This document shows, piece after piece, positions 5,753 to 18,852 of a stretch of DNA of 39,211 bases; position 1 is the first letter of the stretch, and each line of letters starts with the position of its first letter. The stretch comes from a virus (taxonomy: Duplodnaviria; Heunggongvirae; Uroviricota; Caudoviricetes). The stretch lies in IMG/VR virus record IMGVR_UViG_2778261139_000004, positions 1 to 39,211 of that record; one strand, written 5' to 3'. The translations under genes were made by a program, and so were the position numbers. The notes under the pieces are model-generated. The model was not told the DNA's origin and searched no databases. It saw only the letters and a program-made list of their open reading frames with translations.

Positions 5753-6606
5753 GCACCATCCTGAAATGGGCGGGTAATAAAACCGCCATTATGTCCGAAC
5801 TGAAAAAACATCTTCCTGCTGGCCCGCGACTGGTTGAACCTTTCGCGGGTTCTTGTGCTGTGATGATGGCGACGGATTACCCCAGCTATCTGGTTGCGGA
5901 TATTAATCCTGATTTAATCAACCTCTATAAAAAGGTTGCTGCTGATTGTGAGGCGTTTATATCTCGCGCCAGAGTTTTATTTGAGGAAGCAAACAGGGAA
6001 GTGGCTTATTACAACATAAGGCAGGAGTTTAATTACTCCACTGAAATTACTGATTTCATGAAAGCAGTATATTTCCTGTATCTCAATCGTCACGGTTACC
6101 GTGGGTTATGTCGCTATAACAAAAGCGGGTATTTCAACATTCCCTACGGTAATTATAAAAATCCGTATTTCCCTGAAAAAGAAATTCGCGCTTTTGCAGA
6201 AAAAGCCCAGCGAGCAACGTTTATCTGCGCCAGCTTTGATGAAACGCTGGCGATGTTGAAGGCGGGGGATGTGGTGTATTGCGATCCGCCTTATGACGGT
6301 ACGTTTTCCGGCTATCACGCTGACGGCTTTACTGAAGATGACCAGTATCACCTGGCATCCGTTCTTGAACATCGGTCATCAGAAGGACATCCGGTCATTG
6401 TTTCTAACAGTGACACATCCCTGATCCGTTCGCTGTATCGCAATTTTACTCACCACTATATCAAGGTAAAACGCAGCATCGGCGTAGCAGCTGGTGAGAG
6501 TAAATCAGCAACAGAAATCATTGCTGTTTCCGGGCCGCGCTGCTGGGTGGGATTTGATTATTCGCGTGGCGTGGATAGTTCTGCCGTGTACGGAGTACGT
6601 GCATGA
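5749..6606 (+). CDS. dam: DNA adenine methyltransferase (Dam-like, N6-adenine)
   Basis: N-terminal LKWAGNK and FAGS motifs and the catalytic DPPY motif (VYCDPPYDG). ATGA start/stop overlap with the upstream gene. Confidence 0.85.
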
Positions 6607-9017
6607 GCCATGCCGATATGAGCAACTGCTGCGGCTTTAAAGAGGCTGCCGCATCGTTCTCATGGAACAGCCCGAAAAAGGCCATTAACCCTTATCTGGA
6701 CCCGGCGGAAGTTGCGCCGGTTTCTGCGCTTTCAAACCTGATCACTCTGTACGCTGCCGATAACGAGCAGGAACAACTGCGCCGCGAGGCACTGAGTGAT
6801 CAGGTCTGGGAGCGTTATTTCTTTAATGAATCCCGTGATCCTGTCCAACGCGAAATAGAACAGGATAAGCTCATTAGCCGGGCAAAGTTGGCGCATGAGC
6901 AGCAGCGTTTTAACCCGGACATGGTCATTCTGGCAGACGTCAGCGTCCAGCCCTCCCATATCAGCAAGCCGCTGATGCAACGTATTGAATACTTCAGCAG
7001 CCTGGGCAGGCCAAAGGCTTATTCCCGCTATTTACGTGAGACGATTAAGCCATGTCTGGAACGACTGGAGCATGTACGCGACAGCCAGCTATCTGCATCT
7101 TTTCGTTTTATGGCAAGCCATGTAGGGCTGGACGGCCTGCTGATTCTGCCTGAAATGAGTCAGGATCAGGTGAAACGCCTGTCTACCCTTGTCGCTGCGC
7201 ATATGAGCATGTGCCTTGATGCAGCTTGTGGTGATTTGTATGCCACCGATGACGTTAAGCCAGAAGAAATCCGCAAGACATGGGAAAAGGTGGCAGCGGA
7301 AACCCTGCGTCTGGATGTCATCCCGCCTGCGTTTGAGCAACTCCGTCGGAAAAGAAACCGCCGTAAACCCGTGCCCTATGAACTCATTCCGGGTTCGCTG
7401 GCGCGTATGTTGTGCGCCGACTGGTGGTACCGGAAATTATGGAAAATGCGTTGCGAATGGCGGGAAGAGCAGTTGCGTGCTGTCTGCCTGGTCAGCAAAA
7501 AAGCATCTCCCTATGTCAGCTATGAAGCCGTGATGCATAAACGTGAGCAGCGCCGCAAGTCACTGGAGTTTTTCCGTTCTCATGAACTGGTGAACGAAGA
7601 GGGCGACACGCTGGATATGGAAGACGTGGTAAACGCCAGCAGCAGCAACCCGGCGCACCGCCGCAATGAGATGATGGCCTGTGTTAAAGGTCTGGAGCTT
7701 ATCGCGGAAATGCGCGGTGACTGCGCCGTTTTCTACACCATTACCTGTCCGTCACGTTTCCATTCCACGCTCAATAACGGCAGACCAAACCCAACCTGGA
7801 CAAATGCGACGGTAAGACAAAGCAGCGATTATCTGGTCGGCATGTTTGCTGCATTTCGTAAGGCGATGCACAAAGCCGGGTTGCGCTGGTATGGCGTGCG
7901 GGTGGCTGAGCCGCATCATGACGGTACAGTTCACTGGCACCTGTTGTGTTTCATGCGCAAAAAAGACCGCCGCGCCATTACTGCATTGTTGCGTAAGTTT
8001 GCCATCCGTGAAGACCGCGAGGAACTGGGTAATAACACTGGTCCACGCTTTAAATCTGAGCTGATAAACCCGCGCAAAGGAACGCCGACAAGCTACATCG
8101 CGAAATACATCAGTAAGAACATTGACGGGCGTGGTCTGGCTGGCGAGATCAGCAAGGAAACGGGTAAATCCCTGCGTGATAACGCTGAATACGTTAATGC
8201 CTGGGCGTCTCTGCATCGTGTTCAGCAATTCCGCTTCTTTGGCATTCCGGGGCGTCAGGCTTACCGTGAACTGCGATTGCTGGCTGGTCAGGCGGCAAGG
8301 CAACAGGGCGACAAAAAAGCAGGTGCGCCGGTACTGGATAACCCGCGCCTTGATGCCATCCTGGCTGCTGCTGATGCTGGTTGTTTTGCCACCTACATCA
8401 TGAAGCAGGGCGGCGTACTGGTTCCCCGCAAATATCACCTCATCAGAACCGCTTATGAAATTAACGAAGAGCCGACCGCCTATGGCGATCACGGCATTCG
8501 TATTTATGGCATCTGGTCACCCATTGCAGAGGGCAAGATCTGCACTCATGCCGTGAAGTGGAAAATGGTTCGTAAGGCCGTTGACGTTCAGGAGGCGGCA
8601 GCCGACCAGGGCGCTTGCGCCCCTTGGACTCGTGGCAATAACTGTCCCCTTGCTGAAAATTTGAACCAGCAGGAGAAAGATAAATCAGCTGATGGGGACA
8701 CCAGAACGGACATTACCCGCATGGATGACAAGGAGTTGCACGATTATCTGCACAGTATGAGCAAAAAAGAGCGCCGGGAACTGGCTGCAAGGTTACGCCT
8801 GGTTAAGCCGAAACGGCGTAAAGACTACAAACAGCGAATTACAGATCATCAGCGACAGCAGCTCGTCTATGAACTGAAGTCCAGAGGATTTGATGGCAGC
8901 GAGAAAGAGGTCGATTTACTCCTTCGCGGTGGCAGTATTCCGTCAGGAGCAGGCCTGCGTATCTTCTATCGGAACCAGCGTTTGCAGGAAGATGATAAGT
9001 GGCGGGATCTGTATTAA
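6603..9017 (+). CDS. A: Replication initiation endonuclease (P2 gpA family, rolling-circle initiator)
   Basis: 804-aa ORF containing the conserved YIAKYISK active-site tyrosine region; ATGA overlap with dam. Confidence 0.85.
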
Positions 9018-9168: not shown

Positions 9169-9357
9169 ATGCAGGACTATTTTTTGGAGTCTTTGAAGCT
9201 CCAGCGCATTGATTTTTTTCTTAAGCTTGTAGCGGCTAGTGAGTGTAGTGATGAAGAGAAGGGGCTGGCTTTGCAGTGGGTTTCTGAACTAACAGATGAA
9301 CTCATGGCAAAAATCAGAACCCACGAATACAACCGCTCAATGGATGTCATCAGCTGA
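9169..9357 (+). CDS. Small hypothetical protein, possible N-terminal part of a Tum-like SOS antirepressor
   Basis: 62-aa ORF with AGGAGGA upstream of ATG 9169; directly downstream of the LexA box and upstream of the dinI-like gene. Confidence 0.45.
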   Translation: MQDYFLESLKLQRIDFFLKLVAASECSDEEKGLALQWVSELTDELMAKIRTHEYNRSMDVIS

Positions 9358-9367
9358 GGTGACTTTT

Positions 9368-9601
9368 ATGCGCATTGAAATAATGATCGATAAAGAGCAG
9401 AAGATTAGCCAGTCTACCCTGGACGCCCTTGAATCCGAGCTTTACCGCAATCTGCGCCCCCTGTATCCCAAAACGGTAATTCGTATCCGTAAAGGTAGCT
9501 CTAACGGTGTGGAACTGACTGGACTGCAACTGGACGAAGAAAGGAAGCAAGTGATGAAAATTATGCAGAAGGTGTGGGAAGACGACAGCTGGCTGCATTA
9601 A
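9368..9601 (+). CDS. dinI: DinI-like protein
   Basis: 77 aa, MRIEIMIDKEQ ... VWEDDSWLH; resembles the DinI family in length and pattern (MRIEV ... start, acidic C-terminus with W). Confidence 0.7.
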   Translation: MRIEIMIDKEQKISQSTLDALESELYRNLRPLYPKTVIRIRKGSSNGVELTGLQLDEERKQVMKIMQKVWEDDSWLH

Positions 9602-9736
9602 GAAACGTTGCTGGCGTCTGAACTTGTTTCTGGCGTCAGCAAGGTTTAACAACGAGCCCTTGTGAGGCGTTAGCTCTGTAGTGCATGTCTATGCCGCATG
9701 AGATCGCATGATCGTTTGAGGATCGTTTTTGCTAAG

Positions 9737-9760
9737 GCCCGCCAGAACTGGCGGGCTTTT
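9737..9760 (+). terminator. Rho-independent terminator ending the early operon
   Basis: GCCCGCCAG-aac-CTGGCGGGC stem-loop followed by TTTT. Confidence 0.6.
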
Positions 9761-9807
9761 GCGTAGATCATGCAGGTGCATGAAAACCACTACATAAAGC
9801 GGGCAGG

Positions 9808-9826
9808 CGTGGCGGGGATACGAGCG
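9808..9826. other. cos-like motif resembling the P2/186 cohesive-end core
   Basis: GGCGTGGCGGGGATACGAG; the first 13 nt match my recollection of the 186 cohesive end (GGCGTGGCGGGGAAAGCAT). Recollection only, not verified. Confidence 0.3.
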
Positions 9827-9832
9827 CGCGCC

Positions 9833-9861
9833 TTGCCTTATATCTATTTGTTCATTAAAAT
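9833..9861 (+). promoter_or_regulatory. Putative sigma70 promoter for the retron ncRNA/RT operon
   Basis: TTGCCT (9833-9838), 17-bp spacer, TAAAAT (9856-9861). Confidence 0.3.
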
Positions 9862-10075
9862 CATTATGCTCTTTAGTGTAGGAACATTGGTTCCAGCCGG
9901 GTGATTAGCCAGGCTTAAATTTATTGTCCGGTTTAGGGTTGCGAAAGACACAGATTTCTCCTTCGCATCCCTGCCCGGGGCAGATATGCGAAGGAGAAAT
10001 CTGTGTCTTTCGCTGTCTTTAGTGAAGAGTCAAAGCGCTATGTAAAGTTGCATAGCGCTTTGGTTTTAAGAGGGG
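9862..10075 (+). ncRNA. Candidate retron msr-msd non-coding RNA region; boundaries approximate
   Basis: Structured non-coding DNA directly upstream of a retron-type RT: palindrome GGAAC-attg-GTTCC (9881-9894), perfect 28-bp inverted repeat (9941-10013) and a perfect 12-bp hairpin (10031-10062). a1/a2 repeats not confidently identified. Confidence 0.4.
9941..10013. repeat. Perfect 28-bp inverted repeat with a 17-nt partly palindromic spacer (candidate msd stem-loop)
   Basis: GCGAAAGACACAGATTTCTCCTTCGCAT (9941-9968) and its exact reverse complement (9986-10013); spacer CCCTGCCCGGGGCAGAT. Confidence 0.9.
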
Positions 10076-10079
10076 TTAT

Positions 10080-11015
10080 ATGCAACTAACTTCTAAAATT
10101 ATCAGTAAGTTTAATTATAATAGATTAGCTTTCCAATTACTTTTAAATGAGGCCCCCAAAAAATATAAAGTTTATTATATTCCTAAACGTGGCGCAGGTT
10201 TTCGGGTGATAGCTCAGCCGACAAAGGAACTAAAAAACGTACAGAGATTTATAGTATCTTTGCTACAGCCAAAGCTGCCTGTTCATCATAAGGCAATGGC
10301 ATATGAATATAAAAAAAGTATTAAAGATAATGCATTGTTGCATAAAGATAATAATTATATTCTTAAAATGGATTTTCAGAACTTCTTTAACAAAATTAAA
10401 CCTGATATATTTTTCTCGAAACTTGAGAACACAGGGCTGAAATTGGATTCATTTGATGAGAATACCCTACGTAATTTGCTTTTTTGGCGTCCGGGAAAAA
10501 AGAGAAGTACAACGTTGATATTAAGTGTAGGGGCGCCAAGCTCACCATTTATTAGTAATTTTGTTATGTATGACTTTGACAAGAGTCTTGATGATTGGTG
10601 CCGTAACAATGGTATCACTTATTCAAGGTATGCAGATGATATAACTTTTTCAACTAATATTAAGGATATATTGTGCAGGGTTCCTAAGGTGGTAAAAAAA
10701 ATGTTGTCGCTCCATGTTCCCGGTCTATCAATCAATGAATCTAAAACAATTTTTACATCGATGGCTCATAATCGGCACGTGACTGGTGTAACACTTACAC
10801 CTCAGGGCAATTTATCAATTGGTCGCGATCGTAAAAGGATGCTGTTTGCAAAGATTCATAAATATTCTTTGGGACTCTTATCTTCCGAAGAAATAAATAA
10901 AACCAAAGGGATGATTGCGTTTGCAAATTATTTGGAGGGTGATTTTTTATTAAGGTTACAAAAAAAATATGGTTGTGAGTTAATAACTAAGTTCCTGATG
11001 GAAGGAAACAAATAA
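10080..11015 (+). CDS. Retron-type reverse transcriptase
   Basis: 311 aa with the RT active-site motif YADD (SRYADDITFS), an upstream GAPSSP motif, and the retron-typical VTG motif (NRHVTGV) downstream. AT-rich cargo. Confidence 0.85.
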   Translation: MQLTSKIISKFNYNRLAFQLLLNEAPKKYKVYYIPKRGAGFRVIAQPTKELKNVQRFIVSLLQPKLPVHHKAMAYEYKKSIKDNALLHKDNNYILKMDFQNFFNKIKPDIFFSKLENTGLKLDSFDENTLRNLLFWRPGKKRSTTLILSVGAPSSPFISNFVMYDFDKSLDDWCRNNGITYSRYADDITFSTNIKDILCRVPKVVKKMLSLHVPGLSINESKTIFTSMAHNRHVTGVTLTPQGNLSIGRDRKRMLFAKIHKYSLGLLSSEEINKTKGMIAFANYLEGDFLLRLQKKYGCELITKFLMEGNK

Positions 11016-12649
11016 TGATAAATAAAATGAATTTAGAGACTTGCTATGTTGATTTTTTAGAGTTGGAATCACATGTGATAAACGAGGATTATTTGAAGGA
11101 GTCTGTTGAGCTTCAAAAGCTAATATCTACTTTAAATGAGAGTAAGTTTCATTTAAATAAAATAGGTATACATGATTTTAAACGGATAAGAGAACTACAG
11201 ATTTCTTTAGAAGATGATTTGACTGTTTTTGTCGGGGATAACGGATTCGGTAAAAGCACTATTTTGGATGCAATAGCAATTGTTTTGAGTTGGTTGAGAT
11301 CAAATATTGAAAAGGAGAGTAAGCCTGGTACTTATATTAAAAGCCATGAAGTTAATAACTCTGTTGATGTTGAGTATGCATCAATTGATGCAAATATAAA
11401 ACTCAAGGACTTTAATACCAGTATTTTGATTACTAAAGCGAAAGAGGGGGCATATTATTCTAGAAATAATGAATTGTTGGAGGTAAAAAAACTTGCAAGT
11501 ATTTATAGACTTGTGAATAAATATGTTGATAATGCAAGCTTGCCTTTGATGGCATATTATTCTATTGCGCGTTCTTATATAGGCGGCGGGGTTGATAGGA
11601 AAAGAAAAAATGCTAAAACTAAAACTGTATGGTCAAAATTCGATGTGTATGATGAAATCGAGTTTGACAGAAATGATTTTACCGATTTTTTTCAATGGCT
11701 TGTATTTCTTCATAACAGAGCTTCACAAGAGAAATTGAGTGAGTCACAAACGACAATCAATGCGTTATTTTCAGATATTCAGAGTTTGAAAGCAACATTA
11801 ACTCAACTATCTGCGATTGATAATATTGATTCAACAGTTATAAAAGGTTTAGAGCTTTCGCTTAAAGAAAAATTGAACTACATGAAATCTCTGCAATCAG
11901 GAGAACATAAGTTTAATAATGCAGTATCACTTTATGATAGTGTTATAAATACCATTCTAAAGTTCTTGCCTGAATTTCAGTGGATTAAGCTTGTTTATGG
12001 TGATGATGATTATAAGATTATCCTTAAAAAAGGAGAGGTTGAATTAGATATTCAACAGTTGTCTCAAGGTGAGAAAACTATATTTACTTTAGTTGGTGAT
12101 TTGGCTCGACGTTTAATTTTACTTAATCCAAATTTATCTAATCCTCTATTGGGATATGGGATTGTTTTAATTGATGAAATTGATTTGCATTTGCATCCGC
12201 AATGGCAACAGACAATTATTGAGCGTTTGACATCTACATTCCCAAATGTTCAATTTGTAATTACTACCCATAGCCCACAGGTTTTATCCACTGTTAGCTC
12301 TCGTTCAGTGCGTATTCTACAGGAAGTGGAAGTAGATGGTGTTAATGATTTGATAGTGTCTCACCCCGACTATCAAATAAAAGGTGTTAGTAATCAGGAT
12401 GCACTTTTATATGGAATGAGAACTGATCCTATACCCTCTACTAAAGAAAATGGTTGGCTTGAAGAATATAAAAAATTGGTTGAGCTTAATCGTTATAGCA
12501 GTGACGAGGCTCTTTTGTTAAGAGAAAAAGTTATTAAACATTTCGGATTAGACCATCCTTTAGTTCAAGAGTGTGATGATCTTATATCTGTTTTGGAGTT
12601 CAAAAATAAGATAAATCAGCACTTTTCTGGAAGTAAGGATGTAAAATGA
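11015..12649 (+). CDS. PtuA-like ABC/AAA-type ATPase (Septu-type effector partner of the RT)
   Basis: Walker A GDNGFGKST, Walker B VLIDEIDLHLHP, TTHSP motif. Start overlaps the RT stop. Confidence 0.8.
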   Translation: MINKMNLETCYVDFLELESHVINEDYLKESVELQKLISTLNESKFHLNKIGIHDFKRIRELQISLEDDLTVFVGDNGFGKSTILDAIAIVLSWLRSNIEKESKPGTYIKSHEVNNSVDVEYASIDANIKLKDFNTSILITKAKEGAYYSRNNELLEVKKLASIYRLVNKYVDNASLPLMAYYSIARSYIGGGVDRKRKNAKTKTVWSKFDVYDEIEFDRNDFTDFFQWLVFLHNRASQEKLSESQTTINALFSDIQSLKATLTQLSAIDNIDSTVIKGLELSLKEKLNYMKSLQSGEHKFNNAVSLYDSVINTILKFLPEFQWIKLVYGDDDYKIILKKGEVELDIQQLSQGEKTIFTLVGDLARRLILLNPNLSNPLLGYGIVLIDEIDLHLHPQWQQTIIERLTSTFPNVQFVITTHSPQVLSTVSSRSVRILQEVEVDGVNDLIVSHPDYQIKGVSNQDALLYGMRTDPIPSTKENGWLEEYKKLVELNRYSSDEALLLREKVIKHFGLDHPLVQECDDLISVLEFKNKINQHFSGSKDVK

Positions 12650-13329
12650 AATATCTATCTAGGCAAATGCCAGGGCCTTCCGTTCTTAATAAATTTGACT
12701 ATAGGAGGGATGATTGGAATTCCCTATCATCAAATGATAAAAAAGAAATATGGGAAGAAATAATAAAAATGCAAGGTAAATTATGTGCTTATTGCGAGAA
12801 AAAAATAGAGCATCATAAAAGTGGTGGCAAAAATAAAGTTGAGAGGCATATTGAGCATTTTTACAGGAAAAGTTATTACAAAAATTTAACTTTCGAGTGG
12901 TCTAATTTGTTTGGCTCATGTGGTGAGCCGCAAAGGTGTGGGTTTTATAAGGATAAGCAAAAATATAACGATGATGATTTAATTAAAGCTGATAGACAAA
13001 ATCCAGATGTTTTTTTCCATTTTTTGGAAAATGGTGATGTTCATATTAGAGAAGGCTTGAATGAGAAAGAACACAAAATGGCAGAGGTTACGTTAAGAGT
13101 ATTTAACTTAAACCCGTCCTCAGGAGGAGTCAAGGCGGAAAGAAGACGTGCAATAGAATTAAGCATGACATTAATAAAGGAACTGGTCGGATGTGCATCT
13201 CAGCTTATTGAATCAGGATGTGAAATTGAAGATGTTAGATCTATGGTCTTTGATGAGTTTAAAAAGAATGTAAAAGATAGATGCTTTACCACTGCGATAA
13301 AGCATGTTTTTGAGAATAGAATGCCTTAA
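12646..13329 (+). CDS. PtuB-like HNH-type nuclease
   Basis: CAYCEKKIEHH ... ERHIEHF ... SCGEPQRCG cysteine/histidine pattern consistent with an HNH zinc-finger nuclease. Overlaps the ATPase stop by 4 nt. Confidence 0.65.
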   Translation: MKYLSRQMPGPSVLNKFDYRRDDWNSLSSNDKKEIWEEIIKMQGKLCAYCEKKIEHHKSGGKNKVERHIEHFYRKSYYKNLTFEWSNLFGSCGEPQRCGFYKDKQKYNDDDLIKADRQNPDVFFHFLENGDVHIREGLNEKEHKMAEVTLRVFNLNPSSGGVKAERRRAIELSMTLIKELVGCASQLIESGCEIEDVRSMVFDEFKKNVKDRCFTTAIKHVFENRMP

Positions 13330-13352
13330 AGGTTAGAGGGATGTATATATAA

Positions 13353-14384
13353 TTAATCTATATTATATTCTGAGAAATTGATAATATGCATCCCTATCCA
13401 CTGATTAAATTCATGGATTTTTTTTTGTAGAGGTACTAATTCATTTGTCACAAAAACCTTACTAGCTTTCTCCACATCCCCAAACCCCCCAACATTATTC
13501 GGCATAATCCCCATCATTTGCGGCGGCACACGGTGTGCCGCCATCATGTCGTCCCGGCTCACGTTCTTGATATTCAGAAATTCATCCTTCGCTGCAACTT
13601 CTGACAACGGGATGATCTGAAGCCCGTCCTTTTTGCCGTTAGGCGAGTACATAAACAAGTTACGGAAGTTGCCCGGTCCTTTGGCGCTTTTCATCGCGTT
13701 GCGGAGGTTGTTCACATCCTCCTGGTTCTGCGCGGCGTCAGTCATATACATGATGAAGCCTGCATGACTGCCGTTAATGTAATACTTGCGGCGGAACAGC
13801 GTGGCGGACTCGTTGAGCAGGGCTGACGGAATGGCAGAAAGATAACCGGGCAGGCCGTAGATCTCCTGGTTGATGTCCGGTTCCATCAGATGAAAAATGC
13901 TGCCTTTCGCGAACTGATACGGCTGGGTTGTCATACCGTATTGCACAAACCAGTAGGTATCCAGGTCTAACCCGCGTCGGGTGTATTTTGCCAGCGCAGG
14001 CTCAAGGGCGATAACTTCACCGAATCGGTTCGTGCGTTTCTCCAGGTAGGCGTTACCAAATACCAGATAGTCCAGCACAAAACGCGAAAAAGCCTGCTGG
14101 CTGAGAAGCGGGTGAGGGATGTAGGTGCTGGTCAGAATGTTGCATTTCACTGCAATTGGTGAACTGTGATGCACGGCAGCGCGGAAGGTGCGCGCCAGTC
14201 CGTCAAAGCTGACGGGAGGCTCATACCAGCGATCTGTCTGTACGCATTCCACATAGTCCAGCAGTTCGCGGCGGTCAAGTACTGGAATGGGATCACCGAA
14301 GCTGAATGCTTCGGCTGAAGCTTGGCTTTTATGCTGGATCTGGTTCGTCGCCGCAGCGCGTTTTTTTTTACTCTTTCCCATCAA
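13353..14384 (-). CDS. Q: Portal protein (P2 gpQ-like)
   Basis: 343 aa, syntenic with P2 Q immediately before the terminase ATPase gene; overlaps the P stop by 4 nt. Its 3' end is AT-rich. Confidence 0.85.
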   Translation of the reverse strand: MMGKSKKKRAAATNQIQHKSQASAEAFSFGDPIPVLDRRELLDYVECVQTDRWYEPPVSFDGLARTFRAAVHHSSPIAVKCNILTSTYIPHPLLSQQAFSRFVLDYLVFGNAYLEKRTNRFGEVIALEPALAKYTRRGLDLDTYWFVQYGMTTQPYQFAKGSIFHLMEPDINQEIYGLPGYLSAIPSALLNESATLFRRKYYINGSHAGFIMYMTDAAQNQEDVNNLRNAMKSAKGPGNFRNLFMYSPNGKKDGLQIIPLSEVAAKDEFLNIKNVSRDDMMAAHRVPPQMMGIMPNNVGGFGDVEKASKVFVTNELVPLQKKIHEFNQWIGMHIINFSEYNID

Positions 14385-16147
14385 AAAATCTCCACAATAT
14401 TGCTGGTATTGGCGGACTCGCCCTGCAGCGGTTCGTTAAACAGTGCGTGCATTGTTGCCCAGGCCAGATCGGCATGGCTGGCTTCTTCACTGCGGCTTGC
14501 TTCATAGGTCGGGCGGTTGCCGCTGGCGGTGGTTGCGCGACGGATTGCCATAAATGACTGCGCTATGTCGGTGTGTCCGGCGTCAAACTCCAGACGACGG
14601 TGACTGATAATGTCGTAGGCCTTGAGTACCAGGGCGTTTTTAACGTTGGGGTTGTAGACAAACTCCCGGACGGCTGGAAAAAACGCTTTCACGTTTTCAT
14701 AAACCCCGTGACCGACACCCGTCGAGTCGATGCCGATATAGGTCACGTTGTACTGTTCGGTCAGTTTTTTGATGGCGTCAGCCTGGGCGCGGAAGTCCAT
14801 CCCGCGCCACTGGTGACGCTCAAGAATGCGGAACTTACCGCCCGGCACGGCTGGCGGTGCCACCACCACGCATCCGGCGCTGTCGCCGTTTTGCGTACCT
14901 TTTGCCGGGTCATAACCGATCCACACCTCGCGCCAGCCAAACGGGCGCAGGGCCAGTGCATGAAAGTCGGTCCAGACTTCCCAGCTGTCCACCATGCACG
15001 CCTGCAGCTCGCTGAGCGGGAACACGGACGCGAGATCGTCCACGAACTCGCACATCAGCAGGTTCTGGTATTCGTCCGGGCTGTACTCCATGCGCAACTG
15101 GTCAAGGTCGAACAGGTTACAGCCGCCGCGCACCGCATCTTCCACGGTGACTATCTGGCGGTATTGCCCGTCTGCGCACAGCAGGCCGGGGGCCAGATTG
15201 CTATGGGACAGGTCGATGTCCACCTTGTCGGCTTTGTTGCGTCCACGGTTGAACAGCGCACCGGACCAGAACGGATAAGCACTGTGGGTCAGGCTGGATG
15301 GCGTGGAAAAATAGGTTTGTCGCCATTTTTTGTGAATAGCCATACCGGAAGCCACTTTGCGCAGCTCCTGGAATTTCGGTATCCAGAAATATTCATCCAG
15401 ATACAGGTTGCCGTGGTAACTCTGGGCCGTGCGGGCATTGGTGCCGAGGAAGTAAAGAGTGGCCCCGTTGGGAAGCACCATCGGATCGCCTTTCAGCTCC
15501 ACCTCCACTTCTTTGGCGAAGTCGATGATGTACTGTTTAAAGACGTGGGCCTGTGCCTTACTGGCGGAAAGGAAAATCTGGTTACGTCCGGTTAGCAGGG
15601 CGTCAATCAGGGCTTCACGGGCAAAATAGAAGGTCGCGCCGATCTGGCGTGACTTCAGCAGGTTGCGGATGCGGTTGGTTTTTCCGGCTTCCCACCAGTG
15701 GCGCTGGTAGTTGAACATGGAGGAATGGAAGATTTCTTCCAGCTTCTCAATCTGTTCATCGGTGAAAACATTCTTTTCCGGCTGACGGCGCGGGCCTTTG
15801 TTGCGGTTGGCGACGTTAGGGTTTAAGTCGGCTTCGTTGCCGCCATTGTTAAACTTGCCGATCCGCGCGTGGCGCTCCGACTGGCGCGCCAGCAGGTCAA
15901 TTTCTTTAAAGTCTTTCCCTTCTTTGTGCTCCTTCATGATGAGCTGGCAGTAGCGTGCGGCGGTGGTGAGCTGCATCTGATCCAGCGGCCCATAGTAACC
16001 CCACTTGTCGCGTTTTTTCCAGCTGTGAACGGTTGCAACTTTCTCGCCCAGCATTTCAGCAATGCGGGCTACGCGGTATCCCTGAAAGTACAGCAGCATG
16101 GCCTGCCGACGGGGATCGAGATCTGCGGATGTCAGTGTGGTGTTCAT
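14381..16147 (-). CDS. P: Terminase large (ATPase) subunit (P2 gpP-like)
   Basis: 588-aa ORF divergent from the O-N-M-L operon, in the P2 position. Confidence 0.85.
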   Translation of the reverse strand: MNTTLTSADLDPRRQAMLLYFQGYRVARIAEMLGEKVATVHSWKKRDKWGYYGPLDQMQLTTAARYCQLIMKEHKEGKDFKEIDLLARQSERHARIGKFNNGGNEADLNPNVANRNKGPRRQPEKNVFTDEQIEKLEEIFHSSMFNYQRHWWEAGKTNRIRNLLKSRQIGATFYFAREALIDALLTGRNQIFLSASKAQAHVFKQYIIDFAKEVEVELKGDPMVLPNGATLYFLGTNARTAQSYHGNLYLDEYFWIPKFQELRKVASGMAIHKKWRQTYFSTPSSLTHSAYPFWSGALFNRGRNKADKVDIDLSHSNLAPGLLCADGQYRQIVTVEDAVRGGCNLFDLDQLRMEYSPDEYQNLLMCEFVDDLASVFPLSELQACMVDSWEVWTDFHALALRPFGWREVWIGYDPAKGTQNGDSAGCVVVAPPAVPGGKFRILERHQWRGMDFRAQADAIKKLTEQYNVTYIGIDSTGVGHGVYENVKAFFPAVREFVYNPNVKNALVLKAYDIISHRRLEFDAGHTDIAQSFMAIRRATTASGNRPTYEASRSEEASHADLAWATMHALFNEPLQGESANTSNIVEIF

Positions 16148-16193
16148 GGCACAAACCTACAGCCTTGAATAAAGGCTTTCCCCGCCTGCGGTT

Positions 16194-16211
16194 TGTGTGG
16201 TTGTCGGTACA
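16194..16211. promoter_or_regulatory. TGT-N12-ACA element, candidate Ogr-dependent late promoter activator site in the P/O divergent region
   Basis: TGTGTGGTTGTCGGTACA in the 142-bp region between divergent P and O. Confidence 0.35.
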
Positions 16212-18201: not shown

Positions 18202-18852
18202 ATGAGCCTGAGTCCCGCACGGCAGCATCGCCTGCGCGTTCAGGCTGAACAGGCCGCCCGCGAGGGCGGCAGTGTTCGCCACGCATCGGGCTATGATCTG
18301 ATGCTGCTGCAACTGGCGGAAGACCGCCGCCGTCTCAAGGGCGTTCAGTCCACGGTCAAAAAAGCGGAAATCAAGGTGGAGCTGCTGCCGAAGTACGCCG
18401 CCTGGGCAGAGGGTGTCCTGGCTGCCGGAGGCGCTCAACAGGATGACGTGCTGATGTACGTGATGCTGTGGCGCATTGATGCCGGAGATTATGCCGGGGC
18501 GCTGGAGATCGGGCGTCATGCCCTGCGTCATGGCTGGGTGATGCCGCTGGGTAACCGCAACGTGCAGACCGTGCTGGCAGAGGAAATGGCAGATGCAGCC
18601 CAGAGCGCAATGCTTGCCGCCACCGGCTTTGATGCCGATCTGTTGTTGCAGACGCTGGAGCTGACAGACGGTCTGGATATGCCGGACCAGTCACGGGCGC
18701 GTCTGCATAAAGCGATTGGCGCTGTCCTGAGTGAAAGCAATCCGGCTTCCGCCCTTAATCATCTCAACCATGCGTTACAGCTCGATCCCCGCTGTGGCGT
18801 GAAAAAAGACAAACAGCAGCTGGAGCGCAGACTGCGCAATGACAGCCGCTGA
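18202..18852 (+). CDS. M: Terminase small (endonuclease) subunit (P2 gpM-like)
   Basis: 216-aa ORF in the P2 M position. Confidence 0.8.
   Translation: MSLSPARQHRLRVQAEQAAREGGSVRHASGYDLMLLQLAEDRRRLKGVQSTVKKAEIKVELLPKYAAWAEGVLAAGGAQQDDVLMYVMLWRIDAGDYAGALEIGRHALRHGWVMPLGNRNVQTVLAEEMADAAQSAMLAATGFDADLLLQTLELTDGLDMPDQSRARLHKAIGAVLSESNPASALNHLNHALQLDPRCGVKKDKQQLERRLRNDSR

Follow-up and report, generated by a model that had tools for sequence, protein, structure and literature searches.

The locus described here raises a simple question: is a short motif that precedes a retron in an E. coli prophage the cohesive-end (cos) site of that prophage, and does the retron lie as cargo between cos and the portal gene Q? 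The window (the whole stretch of DNA that was analysed, 39,211 nucleotides in length) contains a P2/186-like (Peduoviridae) E. coli prophage, and the segment from 9700 to 13400 is 100% identical to NZ_LR778148.1. The window begins within the integrase gene, with attL outside, and the gene order is integrase, CI repressor, CII, A (6603-9017), tum/DinI, the motif, the retron, Q and P (both on the minus strand), O, N, M, L, the tail genes, D and ogr; the host genes ybjL and ybjM are at the far end, after ogr. The prophage carries genes for terminase, portal, scaffold, capsid and head completion, including the portal gene (13353-14384, minus strand; Pfam Phage_portal), which is the homologue of P2 Q and 186 W, and the terminase large subunit gpP (14381-16147, minus strand; Pfam Terminase_6N, Terminase_6C and Terminase_5) and small subunit gpM (18202-18852, plus strand; Pfam Phage_term_smal, E = 2.2e-40). 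We note that two minus-strand open reading frames between the integrase and CI genes (1135-1665 and 1658-2860) are without Pfam domains and match the PADLOC candidate system PDC-M18 (B, E = 5e-24; A, E = 2e-36); this PDC-M18-like pair represents a second cargo slot in the prophage.

A search of the whole window finds a single exact match to GGCGTGGCGGGGA, at 9806-9818 on the plus strand, and this is the opening part of the 19-mer GGCGTGGCGGGGATACGAG at 9806-9824, the predicted 19-nt cohesive-end sequence. The first-pass annotation had noticed the same motif and was right as to its presence, but had placed it at 9808-9826, 2 nt too far to the right. Its further claim, that the motif matches the 5′ part of the P2/186 cohesive end, is borne out by the 186 genome (NC_001317), where positions 1-13 of the cohesive end are exactly GGCGTGGCGGGGA. 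The annotated cohesive ends open the GenBank records of both phages (GGCGTGGCGGGGAAAGCAT in 186 and GGCGAGGCGGGGAAAGCAC in P2). Over its full length the window 19-mer matches that of 186 at 15 of 19 positions, with the differences at positions 14, 16, 17 and 19 (ATACGAG as compared to AAAGCAT), and 9806-9824 belongs to the P2/186-type cos pattern GGCG(A/T)GGCGGGGAAAGCA(C/T). The annotations of SEN8 and Cartapus mark an identical 19-mer as putative cos, in both cases by homology only, and a literature search for experimental mapping of ends with GGCGTGGCGGGGATACGAG returned only the SEN8 genome announcement (PMC5427200), in which cos was identified by annotation.

The similarity reaches far past the 13-mer, as emerges from the alignment to the P2 and 186 cos regions that the first-pass annotation had proposed as a check. 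Local alignment with the segment 9560-10080 as query places window positions 9739-9832 against the 186 junction (right end joined to left end) in 95 columns, spanning the t95b terminator region, the cohesive end and the GCGCGCC that follows it, and places 9773-9831 against the joined ends of P2 over 58 nt. When the junctions of P2, 186, P4, Cartapus, 813R9, Fels-2, SopEPhi and MLG42 are laid side by side, all eight read ...GCAT(T/G)AAAACC...AAAG(C/T)GGGC(A/G), then the 19-mer, then (C/T)GCGCGC, after which each phage diverges; in the window the 19-mer is followed directly by the conserved CGCGCGC. The block of identity between P2 and P4 is exactly 29 + 19 + 7 = 55 bp and corresponds to window 9777-9831, which is thus a 55-bp core common to P2, P4 and 186 and extending from -29 to +26 as counted from the first cohesive-end base. 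Passages in PMC9594776 and PMC3931495 describe a 55-bp cos region as conserved and needed for packaging, and credit it to Ziermann & Calendar 1990. Dozens of deposited peduovirus genomes contain the somewhat larger block 9736-9832 at 92-100% identity (e.g. Fels-2, E = 3e-39), and the identical 19-mer followed by CGCGCGC is present in plaque-forming or virion-derived phages (SEN8 for example), as well as in Cartapus, Fels-2, SopEPhi, MLG42 and 813R9. The SEN8 genome was sequenced from CsCl-purified plaque-forming particles and has ~2 kb of cargo in the cos-to-Q slot, showing that phages with such cargo are viable.

The position of the core agrees with those of the cos sites in 186 and P2. The last early-region gene before it is a tum/DinI-family gene (9296-9601, plus strand; Pfam DinI, E = 1.3e-22) equivalent to 186 tum, and it is followed on the same strand by a Rho-independent terminator at 9734-9762, the counterpart of 186 t95b. 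The terminator consists of an inverted repeat (9731-9745 and 9748-9762) and a TTTT run; the hairpin has a predicted stability of -24.6 kcal/mol (z = -4.25) and aligns to the 186 t95b region. The gene order at this point in 186 is tum, orf97, t95b, cos, and there are no genes between tum and cos in the window. The overall order A, tum, terminator, cos, Q (minus strand) and P (minus strand) is as in 186 and P2.

Comparison with close relatives shows where the conserved region ends. We fetched 80 IMG/VR loci in which the portal gene is at least 91% identical to that of the window, and in 75 of them there is a cos site 518-3528 nt beyond the portal stop codon; in the remaining five the available flank is at most 2.1 kb, which is too little to tell. 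The short cos-to-portal spacing of P2 and 186 was found in none of the fetched IMG/VR loci. The 19-mer is identical to that of the window in 71 of the 75 sites, and the other four (L035, L048, L052 and L071) share a variant ending ...ATACGAT, with position 19 changed from G to T. A further variant, GGCGTGGCGGGCATACGAG, with a G to C change at position 12, is present in Klebsiella phage 4LV2017 (L006, 1624-1642). Among 71 distinct relatives, the columns from -29 through +25 have a conservation of at least 0.8, which falls to 0.06-0.4 from +26 (window 9832), with a few columns of lower conservation further upstream between -120 and -30. This drop places the left edge of the slot exactly at 9831|9832, where the 55-bp core ends; deposited phages and E. 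coli B have the same junction between core and cargo.

The cargo beyond this edge is highly varied, with 47 types among the 75 IMG/VR loci. Deposited phages carry a DUF4145 protein (Cartapus), a Hypoth_Ymh protein (813R9), an AIPR/Abi protein (Klebsiella phages) or two open reading frames (SEN8) in the slot; a putative HNH endonuclease is also among the cargoes of deposited relatives, and the slot of phage 4LV2017 is occupied by an St85-family retron. Cargo between cos and Q is thus the rule in this phage lineage rather than something unusual. We also observe that cos is flanked by accessory open reading frames, in the DinI-to-cos interval as well as in the cos-to-Q interval, in Fels-2 (L010, 2719-5415) and SopEPhi (L011, 2037-5326), and the hotspot between A and Q can therefore be regarded as two slots with the invariant cos core between them. 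Of these, the window has cargo in the Q-side slot only, and P2 in the A-side slot only.

In the window the Q stop codon (13353) is separated by 3528 nt from the last base of the 19-mer (9824), as compared to gaps of 167 nt in P2 and 176 nt in 186. The first-pass estimate of about 3.5 kb of cargo between the motif and Q was thus accurate, the interval being filled by an RT-PtuA-PtuB retron, and the P2 record agrees with its statement that the variable genes come before cos with Q soon after: old and tin lie between A and cos, and the terminator tQ is in the 167-nt cos-to-Q gap. The equivalent gap in 186 contains tW. Neither 186 nt 28-195 nor P2 nt 27-186 has any similarity to sequences anywhere in the window. 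A P2-like cos adjoining Q was considered and rejected, as there are only 23 nt between the ptuB and Q stop codons, and there is no cos-like sequence with up to two mismatches between 9833 and 13353. The motif is preceded by right-arm sequence, and the left arm starts at 9806, from which it follows that the cargo is on the left arm, between cosL and Q. The sequence comparisons thus support a location of the retron between the predicted cos and Q. What the sequences show directly is the homology of the site, where it lies and which way it points, the abrupt left edge of the slot, the varied cargo of relatives and the terminase genes of the prophage, and with a probability of about 0.88 we interpret 9777-9831 as the cos site of an apparently complete P2/186-like (Peduoviridae) E. 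coli prophage with a type I-A retron in its cargo slot.

Three other interpretations of the motif need to be weighed. Chance similarity of a G+C-rich 13-mer unrelated to cos has in its favour that G-rich heptamers such as GGCGGGG are common in the window and occur more often than expected (8 versus 4.7). Nonetheless, of 300 random windows generated by a first-order Markov model only 5 contain any 13-mer match to the P2 or 186 19-mers (~1.7% per window), and this expectation, together with the extended alignments and the conservation in databases, refutes a chance match; the alignments to the 186 and P2 junctions and the conservation of columns among relatives rule it out, and we give it almost no credence. 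A separate concern is that 9777-9831 is a true cos homologue that is no longer used, the prophage being defective and the motif a relic carried along with the retron. There is a precedent in E. coli B, where a cos-retron-portal block persists in a prophage with truncated cII and replication genes, and attL of the window prophage lies outside the window. However, full-length homologues of A, tum, Q, P, O, N, M, L, D and ogr are kept in the window, the packaging genes are without frameshifts, and the core is identical to that of the plaque-forming SEN8; we therefore regard a relic as unlikely.

The third interpretation concerns a second cos-like motif, GGCTTTCCCCGCC, in the intergenic region between P and O. 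A partial match (CCCCGCC, within the sequence at 16174-16186) had led the first-pass annotation to call the cos assignment uncertain; its position was correctly given and the match is stronger than was thought, as positions 5-17 of P2 cos recur exactly, as the 13-mer AGGCGGGGAAAGC, on the minus strand from 16187 to 16175. Could this motif (16175-16187, minus strand) be the functional cos and the 9806 site a decoy? The exact identity to P2 cos, of a kind found in 5 of 300 random windows, and conservation of the motif in 69 of 70 close relatives speak for such a role. However, the surrounding intergenic region is equally conserved, the 55-bp core similarity is absent on both sides of the motif, and it has only GGCGGGGA in common with the window's own 19-mer. 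The Fels-2 version of the motif differs by one mismatch, and P2 and 186 have nothing like it at the corresponding positions. Moreover, a cut here would leave P and Q without their promoter in the linear packaged DNA until recircularisation, and would break synteny with every mapped relative. A cos at this second site is accordingly most improbable.

The location of the second motif suggests another origin for it. A dyad resembling an activator site (TGT-N12-ACA) is present at 16194-16211, and the motif lies between this dyad and the P start codon; in P2 and 186 an activator site and the late promoter for P are at the corresponding place. Direct comparison of the P/O intergenic region with 186 gives no alignment, the region having diverged, and a four-way comparison with Fels-2 and P2 is informative. 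The motif is probably a coincidence inside the late promoter for P; a weaker possibility is that the 13-mer at 16175-16187 could be a terminase-binding or regulatory element. With no core around it, no equivalent in P2 or 186 and a promoter for P beside it, the second site gives little remaining cause to doubt 9777-9831 as the cos site.

The variable cargo module to the right of the predicted cos occupies 9832-13352 on the plus strand, with the variable stretch running on into the 3′ end of Q to about 13460. Its GC content is 30-38%, as compared to ~53% in the flanks. Putative retron RNA elements lie at the left end, with an msr at 9868-9932 (Rfam RF00170, 45.9 bits, E = 8.7e-6, under the gathering score of 52) and an msd region at 9934-10071 (Rfam RF02058 STnc400, 73 bits, E = 5e-13, under the gathering score of 80), both on the plus strand. 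The msd has a long hairpin at about 9940-10015 with a visible inverted repeat, and the placement of msr and msd upstream of the reverse transcriptase fits a retron ncRNA. A promoter-like site for the ncRNA and operon at 9833-9861 (plus strand; TTGCCT, 17 nt, TAAAAT, with 9 of 12 matches) starts 1 nt past the cos core, and is a consensus match only, from a scan in which promoter-like matches are not enriched relative to shuffled sequences.

Three plus-strand genes follow. The first codes for a type I-A retron reverse transcriptase (10080-11015; Pfam RVT_1, E = 3.7e-30; PADLOC RT_I-A, E = 4.9e-131), the second for a PtuA-type AAA ATPase effector (11015-12649; PADLOC PtuA, E = 1.7e-193 and ATPase_I-A, E = 1.2e-151; Pfam AAA_15), and the third for a PtuB-type HNH nuclease effector (12646-13329; PADLOC PtuB, E = 1.5e-117 and HNH_I-A, E = 3.7e-57); an identical ptuB is named in RefSeq as 'retron Ec78 anti-phage system effector HNH endonuclease PtuB'. 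Judged by its RT, PtuA and PtuB content, the cassette is a type I-A (Ec78-like) retron. A PtuB search for a donor of the AT-rich cassette, with one genome per species, yielded only one distant match, in Nostoc. Other type I-A retrons with RT, AAA ATPase and PtuB genes are present in the cos-to-Q slot of E. coli N10 (L098, 5107-8603) and M37H (L099, 5107-8632); these have 82-89% nucleotide identity to the window over the cos core and msr/msd only, and their coding parts are unmatched by megablast.

Inside the 3′ end of ptuB there is a terminator-like match on the strand of the Q operon, a hairpin with a T-rich tail (13281-13305, minus strand; -10.6 kcal/mol, z = -3.3). The hairpin has T-rich tails on both strands, and no other terminator-like element lies where the retron and Q-P operons converge. 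The hairpin is a candidate that may functionally replace the lost tQ/tW terminator.

The right edge of the slot has a different character from the left. The portal gene is 92-93% identical overall to its closest relatives, but the last ~35 codons (13353 to about 13460) have diverged and are AT-rich, and high nucleotide identity resumes inside Q at about 13455-13465. The GC content of this tail is 25% in the window and averages ~32% in relatives, as compared to 53% for the rest of Q. Even so, key residues in the variable tail are kept (V310, F311, V312, N314, E315, L316, P318, L319, Q320, N327, W329, F337 and Y340). Among the 75 IMG/VR loci, the 47 cargo types pair one-to-one with 47 nucleotide types of the Q tail, and the GC contents of tail and cargo are correlated (r = 0.62). 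The one-to-one pairing indicates that the exchangeable module includes the C-terminus of the portal. The simplest reading is that the linkage is a passive footprint of recombination, with cassettes moving together with a piece of the donor portal gene. A more elaborate one, which we consider doubtful, is that the portal tail is functionally coupled to the cargo, or that it is a mutation-tolerant recombination buffer that lets defence cassettes be swapped without damage to packaging; if true, either coupling or buffering would represent an undescribed design feature of peduovirus defence hotspots. As an observation, the linkage between portal tail and cargo may be new.

How the prophage would use the site can be outlined from these comparisons. 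The terminase of P2 and 186, composed of gpM and gpP, recognises the cos core and nicks the two strands 19 nt apart. By homology, gpM and gpP of the window prophage would recognise the ~55-bp core and make nicks staggered by 19 nt, with predicted cleavage at 9806/9824, so that the top strand of virion DNA would have its first base at 9806, with 5′ overhangs of GGCGTGGCGGGGATACGAG. The retron would then be the left-most gene block of the packaged chromosome, travelling with the phage as a lysogenic-conversion or defence cassette. In the lysogen, the terminator at 9734-9762 would shield cos and the cargo from early and SOS transcription, and the candidate promoter at 9833-9861, if used, would express the retron independently of the early and late operons of the phage. 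Exchange of cassettes is probably by homologous recombination, with the cos core and the portal gene as anchors, and the sharp left boundary and conserved flanks agree with this.

The predicted site has two consequences. It places the expected start of the packaged chromosome, and makes the retron a phage-borne cargo at the extreme left end of virion DNA; carriage in this position would explain the spread of Ec78-type retrons among E. coli. It also defines the slot to the base pair, with a left edge at +26 from the cos cut and a right edge that is fuzzy inside the portal gene, and such a definition could aid automated annotation of defence cargo in peduoviruses. The cos-adjacent retron arrangement itself is not new, even as to the kind of cargo: that this slot adjoins cos and is used by retrons has been on record since 1996, and a large-scale survey of the slot followed in 2022.

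The cos region resembles those of 186, P2 and P4 in its G+C-rich 19-nt cohesive end and in a 55-bp core whose left half contains ...AAAACC...AAAGCGGGC(A/G) and whose right edge is (C/T)GCGCGC. As in 186 and P2, it is located between the early-region terminator and the portal-terminase operon, and in equal orientation relative to Q. The ends of P2, 186 and P4 are known experimentally, whereas the cohesive end of the window variant is predicted from sequence. P2 and 186 also differ in having ~140-150 bp between the core and the portal stop codon, including tQ/tW, where the window has 3.5 kb of cargo. In P4-like satellites the variable genes (gop etc.) likewise begin just past the same core edge.

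Several described systems are organised in a similar way. According to PMC7826664 and PMC5694545, in the passages that cite Dodd & Egan 1996 (Virology 219:115), retrons Ec67 and Ec86 occupy the cos-to-Q slot, and as there described the arrangement is like that of the window, with the retron replacing DNA between cos and the packaging gene/terminator of a 186-related prophage. An Ec86 msr-msd query matches E. coli B strains, one example being BLR(DE3) (L100, 3498-6682), which has the identical 19-mer followed by CGCGCGC, the Ec86 effector, msr-msd and RT, with the portal gene next in line but oppositely oriented. These retrons differ in content from the type I-A retron of the window (RT, PtuA and PtuB; Ec78-like), as Ec86 has an effector and RT and Ec67 an RT-Toprim, and the E. 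coli B prophage is visibly degraded (truncated cII and A), whereas the window prophage looks complete. In P2-like phages of the phiCTX and Ralstonia phiRSY1 type, PMC5694545 describes foreign genes between cosL and the gpQ homologue and calls this a suggested hotspot; the likeness is drawn from that published description rather than from sequence, and the hosts and cargo differ from those of the window. A further parallel is the gpA-gpQ interval in E. coli as described by Rousset et al. 2022 (PMC9122126), a hotspot adjoining cos with 18,150 loci and 1,650 gene arrangements, retrons included. The interval is the same and the cargo similarly diverse, with retrons next to cos, but in the portions of that account on which we draw A-to-Q is treated as one locus, whereas here it resolves into two sub-slots flanking cos.
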